64,000 nucleotides of DNA from an uncultured Actinomycetes bacterium. Lineage in GTDB: Bacteria > Actinomycetota > Thermoleophilia > Gaiellales > Gaiellaceae. The stretch is from positions 852 to 64,851 of the forward strand of contig CAWJCM010000006.1 in assembly GCA_963841405.1 (NCBI GenBank), read 5' to 3'. Position 1 is the stretch's first letter; every line of letters begins with the position of its first letter. Of this stretch, positions 34,380 through 38,174 are shown one piece after another. Below the pieces are notes generated by a model. That model was not told the origin of the DNA and ran no database searches. It worked only from the letters and a program-made list of their open reading frames with translations. The translations under genes were made by a program, and so were the position numbers.

Positions 34380-34482
34380 GCTCGCACCCTACTACGAGAG
34401 TCCAAGAGCTCTACCGATGCACTGGCCGCCGTGCCCGACATATGCGGGCACGGCTCGCAGGCTCGGCGATCCACGGTCGTCA

Positions 34483-34527
34483 GATGAAATCGTCATGCCA
34501 CCGGCGAAGCCGGTGGCGGATTTCATC
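34483..34527 (-). terminator. nested hairpin overlapping the ftsZ stop codon
   Basis: The outer stem GATGAAATC/GATTTCATC (9 bp) encloses GCCACCGGC-gaa-GCCGGTGGC (9 bp). Confidence 0.55.
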
Positions 34528-35872
34528 CGGTCAAGAAGCTGGGCGGTTCGAGGGCCTCGCCCTCGGCCGCGGCCGTGGTGTCGCGCGGATGGACGGCGAA
34601 CGGCCGCTGCGCCCGCCGCTGGCCGCCGAGCCCGGTGGCGACCACGGTCACCCAGACCTGGCCGTTCAGGCGTTCGTCGATGGTCGCGCCGAAGATCAGG
34701 TTCGTGTCGTCGACGGCGCCCTGGCGGACGACCTCGGCCGCCTCGTTCACCTCGAACAGCGACAAATCCTCTCCGCCGGCGATCGAAAGCAGGATCCCGC
34801 GCGCGCCGCCGAGCTCCGTGTCTATCAACGGCGAGCGCAGCGCCCGCTCGGCGGCCTCGCGAGCGCGGTTCTCACCGGTCGAGAAGCCGATCCCCATCAG
34901 GGCGTTCCCGCCGTCCTGCATGACGGTGCGCACGTCGGCGAAGTCGAGGTTGATCAGGCCCGGCTGCGTGATCAGATCGGTGATCCCCTGAACGCCCTGG
35001 CGGAGAACGTCGTCCGCGATCCGGAAGGCATCGAGCATCGCCGTGTTCTTCTCGAGCACCTCGAGCAGGCGGTCGTTGGGGATGACGATCACGGTGTCGC
35101 AGGCGCTGCGGAGCGCCTCGACGCCCGCCTCGGCCGCCGACTTGCGGCGCGTCCCTTCGAACCGGAACGGCGTGGTGACGATGCCGACGGCGAGGGCACC
35201 GAGCTCGCGGGCGATCCTGGCGACGACCGGCGCCGCGCCCGAGCCGGTCCCCCCGCCCTCGCCCGCGGCGACGAACACCATGTCGGAGCCGCGGAGGGAC
35301 CGTTTGATCTGGTCATACGCCTCCTCGGCCGCAGCGCGACCGATGTCCGGGTCGGCGCCCGAGCCGAGGCCTTGGGTCAGCTCGCGTCCGATGTGGATCT
35401 TCAGCGGCGCGTCGTTCATCTGCAGCTGCTGGATGTCGGTGTTAACCGCGACGAACTCGACGCCCGTGATTCCGGCGTCGATCATCCGGTCGATCGCGTT
35501 CAGGCCCGCACCGCCGACGCCGACGACGCGGATCACGGCGAGGTAGGCGGAGTCGGCGCGCGGCGCCTGCCAGAGCCGCGGCGGCTGCTCGGGCAGCGGG
35601 TCGACCAGGCGGGCCGCGGGGCGCGCCTCCTCCCGCGGAGCCGGCTCGGTCTCCGACTCCGGAGCGCGTACCGGAGCCCCTGCTGCCTCCGCAGCGGCTT
35701 CCACGACTCGGTCCGACCTGTGCTCCGGCTCGGGCTCCCGAGTCGAGAGCTCGGGAGACGGAGCTACTTCGGCCGGCTCGGTCTGTGCCTCGGCCTGGCG
35801 CTGGGCGGCCTCCGTCGCGCGGAAGAGCTCCGCGAGCGGGCCCTCACGCATGCTTGCGCGCTTGCGCGCCAT
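34523..35872 (-). CDS. ftsZ: cell division GTPase FtsZ with an N-terminal extension of about 105 aa
   Basis: The 449-aa ORF contains [22 protein letters not shown], the tubulin signature [13 protein letters not shown] and a C-terminal peptide LEPPSFL. Residues 1-105 are Ala/Glu/Pro-rich and low complexity. Confidence 0.9.
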
Positions 35873-36677
35873 TGAGCACCTCCTTCGCCAGGTCGCGGTA
35901 GGCCTGCGCAGCGGAGCCGGTGGGGTCGTACTTGAGCACCGACGTCCCCTTCACGGGCGCCTCGGCGTAGCGGATCGTCTTGCGAATTCGAGTCTTGAAC
36001 ACGAGGTCGCCGAAGTTCTCCTCGAGGATCTCGAGCGCCTCACGCGAGTGCAGCGTCCGGCTGTCGTACATCGTGGCCAGGATCCCCTCGATCCCGACGG
36101 CCGGGTTCAGGTTCTCGCGGATCATGCTCAGCGTGTTCTCCAGCTGCACGAGGCCGCGCAGAGACAGATACTCGCACTGGACCGGGACGATCACCCCGTT
36201 CGAGGCGACGAGCGCGTTGATCGTCAGCAGACCGAGCGACGGCGGCGTGTCGATGATGACGAAGTCGTACCGGTCGATCACCGGCGCGAGCGCCTTCTCC
36301 AGGGAACGCTCACGGCCGATCATCGCGGAGAGCGCCAGCTCGGCGCCGGCCAGGTCGATCGAGGCGACCGCGAGGTCGATCTCGCCGTGGTGGATGATCT
36401 GGTCGATCGGGAGCCGGTGGACGAGCACGTCGTACATCGAGCGCTCGATCGTGTCCGGGTTCAGGCCCTGGCTCATGGTCAGGTTGCCCTGCGGGTCGAG
36501 GTCGACCGCGAGCACGTTGCTTCCCTCCTCGGCGAACGCGACGGCGAGGTTCAGCGTCGAGGTCGTCTTCGCCACTCCGCCCTTCTGGTTGGCGAGTGCG
36601 ATGACCCTTCCCACGGTTGCTCCTTTAGAGGTGGACGCCCGAACCTGCGGGCGCGCGATGTCCTGTAGGGCCGACAT
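35844..36677 (-). CDS. orphan ParA/Soj-family ATPase
   Basis: The 277-aa ORF has the deviant Walker [11 protein letters not shown], plus DLDPQGN and IDTPPSLG. No parB follows. Its stop overlaps the ftsZ start by 29 nt. Confidence 0.88.
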
Positions 36678-36698
36678 GGTGCCGGGCCGTCTTTCGGC

Positions 36699-36938
36699 TC
36701 AGGCTAGCAGAGTCCTGCCGGAGATCCGCTCTGCGGTTTCCGGTGGCCGGAGCAGCTCCCGGCAGCGGTCCACCGCGTCGGTCGCCCCGCCCGGGACGGG
36801 GTGCTCCACCCGCGCCCAGGCCTCCGCCTCGGACAGCAGTGACCGCAGCTCGGCGAGCAAATCGGCCGGCGCGGCGTGCGCACGGTCGAGCGCCTCGATC
36901 CGCTCCAGCCGCGCCAGCAGGCGCCTCGCCTCGTCCAT
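36699..36938 (-). CDS. hypothetical small helical protein
   Basis: The 79-aa ORF lies 21 nt upstream of parA on the same strand. Its composition is coding-like. No recognisable domain. Confidence 0.4.
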   Translation of the reverse strand: MDEARRLLARLERIEALDRAHAAPADLLAELRSLLSEAEAWARVEHPVPGGATDAVDRCRELLRPPETAERISGRTLLA

Positions 36939-36995
36939 GCCGCGACCGTAGCCGGGCAGGACGCGCCGGTTCGTGGCAGGTGCGTGCCGACTTCG

Positions 36996-38174
36996 TCACG
37001 CGGCACTCGCCCGGGCGGCGAAGAAGCCCGCCGGACGCGCGCGCAGCCCGAGCAGCGCCTCGTCGAGCGACTCGAGCAGCCGGGGCCGGTCGTCGGCAAG
37101 CATGGTCTCGACGAAGATCCGGCGCATGGTGTCCGCAGTTTCGGCGTCGGCGCCTGCCCCTCGTGCCAGACCGAGCAGGCCGTCCACCCGAGCCCGTGCC
37201 GTGGGGTCGGTGACCTCGCCGATCAGCACCGCCGCGCGCATCGCAGCCGCCCAGAGCCCGTCGGCGCCGCCGAGGAGGGCGGCGAGCGCTTCGCGGAGAC
37301 GCTCCGAACGGAGCGGCTCGGCCTCGAACAGCGACAGCTCCCAGCGTTCGAGCGCCTCGCCGAGGTCGCCGTCCTGCTCGGATGCTGGAAGCCTGGCGAG
37401 CACGTCGGCGGCGAGCTTCCCGCGCCATAGATCGAGCCGCGACGGCTCCCCACCCGGCCGGGTGGCAGCGATCCCGAGCAGTGGCCTCGGCTCGAGCGGG
37501 TGGCGGTCGACCCGCTCGACGACGAGCGGCCCGGCGGCAACGGCTGCGCCCGTGGCCAGACGGAGCGCCGTGACCGCGTCGGCGAGCTCTCCGGGAGCGT
37601 CGGGCAGCGTCAGCTCGCCCGCAGGGAGATCGCGCTCGAACGCGAGAGAGCCGTTCTCGTCGGGCTCCGCGCCATCGACGCGCTCGACGCGGATGCCGCG
37701 CGCCAGCTCGATCGTACCGCCGACCGAGAGGCCCAGGAGCGGCACTGCGGCGGCGTATCGCCTGCCTGCTCCGAAAAGCGACCGTTCGAGCTCGCCGTAG
37801 ACCCGGTTGAACCCCCCGTCCTCCCAGTCGAAGCCCCCGCAGGCCTCGGCGGTCGAGACGAGCAGCGGCAGCAGGATCGCACGAAACAGTGTCCGGCCCG
37901 CGGCCGGCCCGTCGGCGGCGCCGCGCGCGAAGACGGCGGCCGCGGGCTGGCGCCGCAGCTCGTCGAGCGCGATCCGGGCATCCGGGAGCTGCGAAAGGAC
38001 GTGCACTCGCTCCTCGAGATAGTCGCGCAGGAGCGGCCGGTACTCGTAGAGGCCGCCGCGCTCGTCGACCACGAACGGGATCTCGCCTTGCTCCGCGTCG
38101 GGGGCGATCCGCGCGAAGGCCGCGAGACAGAACGCCCGAAGGGCCCCGTAGAGATGGGGAGCGGCGGCCGTCAT
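36996..38174 (-). CDS. hypothetical protein (392 aa), first gene of the parA-ftsZ module
   Basis: The long ORF has balanced, non-junk composition (YEYRPLLRDYLEERVHVLSQL..., WEDGGFNRVYGELERSLFG...). I do not recognise any domain. Confidence 0.6.
   Translation of the reverse strand: MTAAAPHLYGALRAFCLAAFARIAPDAEQGEIPFVVDERGGLYEYRPLLRDYLEERVHVLSQLPDARIALDELRRQPAAAVFARGAADGPAAGRTLFRAILLPLLVSTAEACGGFDWEDGGFNRVYGELERSLFGAGRRYAAAVPLLGLSVGGTIELARGIRVERVDGAEPDENGSLAFERDLPAGELTLPDAPGELADAVTALRLATGAAVAAGPLVVERVDRHPLEPRPLLGIAATRPGGEPSRLDLWRGKLAADVLARLPASEQDGDLGEALERWELSLFEAEPLRSERLREALAALLGGADGLWAAAMRAAVLIGEVTDPTARARVDGLLGLARGAGADAETADTMRRIFVETMLADDRPRLLESLDEALLGLRARPAGFFAARASAA

Follow-up and report, generated by a model that had tools for sequence, protein, structure and literature searches.

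A parA-coupled second ftsZ in Thermoleophilia and its N-terminal peptide as a candidate partner of the orphan ParA

The DNA analysed here is a 64,000-nucleotide stretch, called the window below, of an uncultured soil bacterium of the family Gaiellaceae (class Thermoleophilia, order Gaiellales; GenBank assembly GCA_963841405.1, contig CAWJCM010000006.1, positions 852 to 64,851 of the forward strand), and the subject is a group of four co-directional open reading frames (ORFs) in which an ftsZ gene, ftsZ2, directly follows an orphan parA whose product is referred to as ParA-Z. Two further ORFs, named p392 and p79 after their length in amino acids (aa), lie upstream. In the order of reading on the minus strand the locus comprises:

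36996..38174, minus strand: p392 ORF, 392 aa
36699..36938, minus strand: p79 ORF, 79 aa
35844..36677, minus strand: orphan ParA (ParA-Z) ORF, 277 aa
35879..35883, minus strand: ribosome-binding site GGAGG of ftsZ2, within the parA codons K-E-V and 6 nucleotides (nt) before the ATG at 35872
34523..35872, minus strand: FtsZ2 ORF, 449 aa

The intergenic gaps are 57 nt between p392 and p79 and 21 nt between p79 and parA, and the parA and ftsZ2 genes overlap by 29 nt. A preceding sequence-only reading of the window had described this co-directional arrangement with its gaps and overlap, which the ORF coordinates bear out in full, and had named nei, ASCH and ggt as the neighbours, which were confirmed by domain matches in a Pfam scan (H2TH and Fapy domains for nei). 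With G+C contents at third codon positions of 0.87-0.92, all four ORFs look coding. The location of the ftsZ2 ribosome-binding site inside parA is common to the Gaiellales loci in which it was read, and in 40 loci of the class the start of ftsZ2 either adjoins the end of parA or overlaps it; judged by this layout, translation of parA and ftsZ2 is physically coupled.

The genome (3.44 Mb in 11 contigs, 95% complete) contains two ftsZ genes above cut-off. The other copy, encoding a protein of 363 aa (FtsZ1) on contig C2, closes a complete division and cell wall (dcw) cluster in the order rsmH, ftsI, murE, murF, mraY, murD, ftsW, murG, murC, murB, ftsQ, ftsZ, whereas the window copy is not at a dcw end and stands between parA and ASCH/ggt. 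A canonical parA-parB pair is located on contig C7 with the only ParB of the genome (TIGR00180), and none is found beside ParA-Z. Since both a dcw ftsZ and canonical parAB are thus present elsewhere in the genome, where the sequence-only reading had suggested looking for them, the window copy is a paralogue, FtsZ2, accompanied by an orphan ParA; the second of the two explanations offered by that reading, a specialised additional FtsZ, has thereby been established. The two FtsZ proteins are 58% identical over the core. SepF is present in the genome, no FtsA was found above cut-off in the genome and no MinD above cut-off anywhere in it, and scpA is on contig C3, away from ParA-Z. The window FtsZ has its named relatives in metagenome-assembled genomes (MAGs) of uncultured Gaiellaceae, Gaiellales and Thermoleophilia.

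The 449-aa protein scored 412 bits against the FtsZ equivalog TIGR00065 (cut-off 295.2, residues 109-422) and contains the Tubulin domain PF00091 (residues 114-273, 7.6e-47) and the FtsZ_C domain PF12327 (residues 322-415, 9.6e-32). From its N-terminus to its C-terminus it is divided as follows:

35810..35866, minus strand: N-terminal peptide, residues 3-21, proposed as ParA-docking tail from sequence comparison
35549..35809, minus strand: Ala/Glu/Pro-rich disordered linker, residues 22-108, variable in length and ending in a family-level motif
34607..35548, minus strand: core with tubulin-type GTPase and FtsZ_C domains (TIGR00065, 58% identity to FtsZ1)
34532..34552, minus strand: C-terminal conserved peptide LEPPSFL, aligned with LDVPSFL of FtsZ1

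The signature GGGTGSG and the T7 loop NLDFADV are present, and both align with FtsZ1. In FtsZ proteins the C-terminal peptide is the usual docking site of membrane anchors. On these features FtsZ2 is predicted to be a complete polymerising GTPase that keeps its C-terminal anchor-binding peptide, in agreement with the canonical core (GGGTGSG, EPPSFL) described beforehand. In the FtsZ2 proteins of family f6 (loci L136, L137, L146 and L147; families are given by running numbers, f1 being Gaiellaceae), the usual C-terminal [DE]-[IV]-P-x-F is missing and a long acidic tail with v-F-D-V-E is found; anchor binding may differ in this family because of the replacement.

The start of FtsZ2 is near-invariant in every family of the class and reads [KR]R-x-S-M-x-[DE]-G-P-L-A-x-L-F-R-x-T. 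The forms of the peptide by family include KRHSMRDGPLAQLFKATE in f5, RPSMRDGLSELFRRTD in f7, RASMKEGALSNLFQPTE in f10, RSSIKDSGLSSLFKATD in f8 and RPSMREGPLSELFRRTE in f6. The linker that follows is of low complexity, and its length differs between families (26-152 aa). Because the peptide at M1 is conserved throughout the class, M1 is the start codon and the N-terminal extension is real; with GGAGG placed 6 nt before this ATG, an artefact of start-codon choice, which had been considered beforehand, can be set aside.

Forty loci from 13 Thermoleophilia families and 12 named MAG loci were read, and parA and ftsZ2 were adjacent in all of them (52/52), a recurrence beyond chance, the longer FtsZ being encoded directly after ParA with stop and start mostly overlapping, and ggt often being the downstream neighbour. 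At least two FtsZ matches were obtained in 56/61 genomes of the order and in 146/151 genomes of the class. In an unrooted tree of FtsZ cores (n=120), the 51 ParA-coupled copies fall on one side of a single branch (Shimodaira-Hasegawa-like approximate likelihood ratio test, SH-aLRT, 99), and the 69 copies on the other side belong to dcw clusters, some of them from other classes and phyla. The topology of the FtsZ2 subtree follows the families and, together with the separating branch, therefore fits a single origin with vertical descent. The core unit is a two-gene parA-ftsZ2 module, found class-wide and additional to FtsZ1 and ParAB, and by its composition it may be classed as a variant of the ParA cargo-positioning systems.

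The literature search found no description of a ParA-coupled FtsZ from Thermoleophilia. A few bacteria with two ftsZ genes, the extra copy being located outside the dcw cluster, are mentioned by Santana-Molina et al. 2023 (PMC9871819, Bipolaricaulota), where none of the terms Actinobacteria, Actinobacteriota and Rubrobacter appears. In Atribacterota, one of two FtsZ proteins carries an extension taken as an amphipathic helix, and 9/6751 type strains possess a typical FtsZ together with one with an extension (Katayama et al. 2020, PMC7736352). These second FtsZ proteins resemble FtsZ2 in their location outside dcw and, in Atribacterota, in the N-terminal extension, but no ParA coupling has been described for them and, leaving aside the unnamed 9/6751 type strains, Thermoleophilia are unmentioned in either paper (PMC7736352, PMC9871819).

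ParA-Z is a P-loop ATPase of the ParA/Soj type (Pfam AAA_31, 6.8e-57, 192.7 bits; NF041546 ParA_partition, 114.5 bits). Its deviant Walker A motif, KGGVAKTT, fits K-G-G-x-x-K-[ST] with the signature lysine present, and the Arg in IRYAEAP aligns with the DNA-binding Arg of Soj-type proteins. Among solved structures, 8RAY and the mycobacterial 4PFS/5IF9 come closest, the latter sharing KGGVAKTT. Identity to the genome's own Soj is 43%, orthologues within the class are 62-84% identical (E ≤1e-100), and the best matches outside the class reach 48-54%. In 10 loci outside the class, the ParA regions were 49-54% identical to ParA-Z against 39-49% to the genome's Soj, and neither FtsZ nor ParB was found near these nearest outside-class ParAs. 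In some lineages (L138:6242-7447, L139:5881-7020, L160:3435-4604), ParA itself carries 100-130 additional residues at its N-terminus, acidic or Pro-rich in composition.

Outside the class, an ORF of 114-165 aa, referred to as the small partner, abuts or overlaps the end of ParA and is preceded by a GGAGG, which is usually located in the same K/R-E-V codons. Its N-terminus is RRASLPGADELFR-x-T, with the pattern M-x-RRASLPGA[DE]ELFR-x-T, and after a variable linker the C-terminal domain reads RH[DE]EK[IV]TFYCT..EL..LE.ARL.LR...G...DRGRIVREAL. Among the genomes in which both matches were listed, the small partner was directly downstream of the ParA match in 46/47, and in the phylum-wide sample it was detected in 17/17 genomes of f14, 16/17 of f19, 16/18 of f23, 5/5 of f32 and 4/10 of f20. 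It was recovered from 0/151 Thermoleophilia genomes, when the control genomes known to hold it gave 5/5. Thus the RRASLPGADELF protein is missing after ParA-Z, and FtsZ2 takes that position.

The small partner belongs to a family of at least 8,000 proteins, every one annotated as hypothetical and one of them from Egicoccus, and neither a Pfam match nor a PDB sequence match was obtained. In an AlphaFold2 monomer model, residues 1-45 are disordered and residues 60-122 form an extended segment and helices with a predicted local distance difference test (pLDDT) score of 86-96; the Foldseek top match was the ribbon-helix-helix (RHH) ParB of pCXC100 (3NO7, TMt 0.53), with a non-significant E of 2.1. 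In loci L150 and L154 of f23, the ParA frame runs about 100 residues further and the RHH-like domain of the partner is in another frame, the RASLP..ADELF peptide being found separately, which may represent a different junction or assembly frameshifts.

In the locus L160:3435-6222 of a large-genome actinomycete, the gene order is ald, parA-like, small partner, scpA, rluB, and the ParA-like protein is 47% identical to ParA-Z; this order is presumably similar to that around Rv1708 and PldP, which are linked to scpAB. The nearest outside-class ParAs are PldP/Rv1708-like. The proteins PldP (Cg1610 of C. glutamicum), Rv1708 and MSMEG_3743 are, like ParA-Z, orphan Soj-like ATPases alongside ParAB, with a reported effect on division-site placement; Rv1708 affects septum placement and is reported to bind ScpA and ParB (PMC10482377), and the partner of PldP is stated as unidentified in a 2025 preprint (10.1101/2025.07.02.662783). 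Unlike these, ParA-Z is not beside scpAB, and an FtsZ paralogue follows it in place of the small partner.

The FtsZ2 peptide and the N-terminus of the small partner have RAS[LM] and ELFR-x-T in common. Both are located at the extreme N-terminus of a gene that overlaps the end of a related ParA gene, ahead of a disordered linker, and their carriers, FtsZ2 and the small partner, are mutually exclusive in distribution. The sequence ELFR.T was derived from invariant columns of the partner alignment alone, and among the 6.08 million residues of the six-frame translation of the genome it has a single occurrence, at residues 15-20 of FtsZ2; of the comparisons made between the tails, the one with this rare-residue block was the only one to give significance. 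For the two-block pattern R[AP]S[LM].{3,7}[DE]LFR.T, which was fixed with both sequences known, 6e-4 occurrences were expected genome-wide and one was observed. On this basis the two tails are likely to be homologous or functionally equivalent, and the peptide of FtsZ2 itself is a better candidate for the ParA partner than p392 or p79. A likeness of the FtsZ2 peptide to the motif RRGLGRGLEVLIG of the genome's own ParB was also considered, and was dropped as of no use as evidence.

Several observations weigh against a relationship between the tails and against what is built on it below. A hidden Markov model (HMM) of the first 19 columns of the partner ranks FtsZ2 118th in the six-frame translation (E = 33), in BLOSUM62 local alignment its rank among 40,002 segments varies with the gap penalty between 102nd and 2395th, and an HMM of 46 FtsZ2 tails in turn matches the partners as two halves only (E ~34-44). 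An indel of 1-2 residues separates the two peptides. The generic statistics are non-significant likely because of this indel in the middle of the peptide and because of non-coding frames rich in Arg, Ala, Gly and Pro at 71% G+C. Moreover, the co-occurrence counts are not independent events because FtsZ2 has one origin, and the RHH-like nature of the partner C-terminus is suggestive, coming as it does from a monomer model and a Foldseek match short of significance.

Two known types of system provide the closest comparison. In type Ib partition (ParF-ParG; RHH ParB of pCXC100, 3NO7), a small ParA is followed by a small protein with a disordered N-terminal tail and an RHH domain, an architecture that the outside-class partner, with its putatively RHH-like C-terminus, may share, and in type Ib systems the tail activates the ATPase; in the window, by comparison, a whole FtsZ is found in place of the RHH domain. 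In the PomXYZ system of Myxococcus xanthus, a ParA-like ATPase bound to the nucleoid is activated by a peptide at the N-terminus of its partner and positively positions the FtsZ ring. There the scaffold PomX bears the peptide and recruitment of FtsZ is indirect, whereas here the peptide would be on the FtsZ paralogue itself.

A ParA-based system acting on FtsZ is favoured as plausible, and we put at about one in two the probability that FtsZ took over both the place of the ParA partner and its ParA-docking tail, and that ParA positions FtsZ2. The FtsZ2 tail would then derive from, or at least mimic, the N-terminal tail of a small RHH-like partner, the DNA-binding domain of which would have been replaced by an FtsZ core in the Thermoleophilia ancestor. 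The ATP-bound ParA-Z dimer would sit on the nucleoid, and from the analogy with the tails of ParB, ParG and PomX we infer that the FtsZ2 tail docks on this dimer, where it would stimulate ATP hydrolysis. ParA-Z would thereby place FtsZ2 polymers relative to the chromosome, and FtsZ2 would then nucleate or bias the division ring, either co-assembling with FtsZ1 or acting via the common SepF, in a genome in which no MinD was found. The fuller form of the proposal, in which FtsZ is the direct cargo of ParA, the DNA-binding domain of the partner has been swapped for FtsZ, and ParA together with a self-tethering FtsZ2 sets the division site on the nucleoid without Min, Noc, MipZ or PomXY-type adaptors, is put forward more tentatively.

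Division-site selection in Actinobacteria is an open question because these organisms lack Min and Noc. If the proposal is true, parA-ftsZ2 would connect a ParA gradient to the Z ring more directly than any link seen so far, and would be an example of ParA systems gaining cargo by domain swap behind a conserved tail. As a corollary, the partner long sought for the PldP-type orphan ParAs of other actinobacteria would be the small, uncharacterised RRASLPGADELF protein. Its family is a candidate for the missing partner of the PldP/Rv1708 type.

The strongest alternative, although an unlikely one, is that the peptide is an amphipathic membrane helix or a dock for SepF, FtsZ1 or another protein, with ParA co-expressed or acting on the FtsZ2 core. 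The helical hydrophobic moment of the peptide, 0.62, is within the range of known membrane-targeting helices, the extension of the second FtsZ in Atribacterota was taken as an amphipathic helix (PMC7736352), and the non-significant alignment tests given above are in line with this explanation. However, the same RAS[LM]...ELFR-x-T heads a soluble, FtsZ-less small protein after ParA, where an anchor is unexpected, and large hydrophobic residues number just three in the peptide, several others being acidic. Amphipathicity as such was rejected as a discriminator, as it fails to separate the rival readings.

Somewhat less likely again, ParA-Z may be a MipZ- or MinD-like inhibitor that acts via the core on FtsZ2 or on both FtsZ proteins, over the nucleoid or the poles, with the tail in a tuning role. 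A partial match to the Pfam MipZ profile PF09140 (43 bits) agrees with this, as do the genome without a detected MinD and the influence of related orphan ParAs on septum placement (PMC10482377; PldP); but the MipZ match covers profile positions 1-144 of 262 only and is not full-length, the best matches of ParA-Z are of the ParA/Soj type, and the MinD model TIGR01968 gave 45.6 bits, far below its cut-off of 212.9. An inhibitor would moreover leave unexplained that the class has retained, throughout its history, a specialised paralogue with a conserved tethered peptide beside the ParA.

The sequence-only reading had proposed the two upstream ORFs as the partners of ParA, and conservation of the four-gene synteny was examined accordingly: parA-ftsZ2 was kept in all loci read, and p392 and p79 proved lineage-restricted. 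In the class sample p392 was found in 23/23 genomes of f1, 1/1 of f2, 12/12 of f9, 11/11 of f11, 1/1 of f12 and 1/1 of f13, and in the order sample in 6/6 of f3 and 6/6 of f4. It was detected in 0/101 genomes of f5, f6, f7, f8 and f10 (5/11 class families), all of which keep parA-ftsZ2, and outside the class the sample gave one weak match. Where present, p392 is on the parA strand, 0.1-25 kb upstream of parA. An opposite-strand pair of BagA/BagB-like ArsA-type ATPase genes lies between p392 and parA in f4, f9, f11 and f12, and a cupin, M48 peptidase or LysR regulator gene is inserted at other loci. Overall, p392 occurs in about half of the families, and genes on the opposite strand usually stand between it and parA.

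No match for p392 was found in Pfam, NCBIfam or the PDB sequences, and its family counts 1,932 representatives at E ≤1e-3 among 1.8 billion protein representatives searched, which come without names or context. The AlphaFold2 model is confident (pLDDT 90, predicted template modelling score 0.85), and Foldseek against PDB gave no structural neighbour (best E 0.04, template modelling score ~0.12); p392 is a conserved soluble alpha/beta protein. The p392 of the window and its two closest orthologues lack some 25 conserved aa (GEL...WPEA.GLLP..FGREPDR) which the other members keep, the reading frame being intact.

No Pfam or NCBIfam family matches p79, which is probably helical according to its sequence and has about 45 conserved N-terminal residues, MEEARRVLARLERIEALDR...LLAELRALLAEAEAWARAE. 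Its G+C content at third codon positions is 0.90, and compared to the closest orthologue 16 of the 79 codons differ synonymously and 21 non-synonymously. Matches by tblastn were confined to loci of f1 (Gaiellaceae), with none in five non-f1 loci that have p392, and p79 is missing from a locus in which p392 abuts parA.

Because the unrelated ggt is equally syntenic, p392 is best regarded as part of a slowly rearranging block and not as a shown partner, and neither p392 nor p79 belongs to the core of the module, both being neighbours restricted to certain lineages. It is therefore improbable that p392 and p79 are PomX/PomY-like partners of ParA-Z in one four-gene positioning machine: the close co-directional spacing of the Gaiellaceae genes (21-57 nt), the order nei-p392-p79-parA-ftsZ2 recurring in that family, the position of p392 upstream of parA in several families, and the tendency of p392-bearing families to longer FtsZ2 linkers with a second motif, seen in two or three independent lineages at most, are set against the five families that have the module without p392, its near absence outside the class, the genes that separate it from parA, the synteny of ggt and the family restriction of p79.

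The BagA/BagB-like (ArsA/Get3-type) genes form a pair divergent from and upstream of parA-ftsZ2 in L138:7638-9714, L142:6696-8836, L039:7534-9710 and L132:6655-8904, and the genome from which the window comes gave no match to BagB.

A scan for promoter and terminator consensus sequences at the locus returned nothing useful. At the other end of the gene group, a strong fold was identified:

34481..34529, minus strand: stem-loop across the ftsZ2 stop codon, -31.9 kcal/mol, z = -5.0

None of 200 shuffled sequences folded as well (0/200). The transcription unit probably has its 3′ end here; since the stem-loop is without a T run, its function as a terminator is putative.

The second motif of the FtsZ2 linker in p392-bearing families is P-x-P-x-E-R-L-x-x-F in f9, f11, f12 and f13. 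The linker of f1 FtsZ2 has a different second motif, located at 35549-35600 in the window, and the loci of the other families concerned are L131-L133, L138-L142 and L148.

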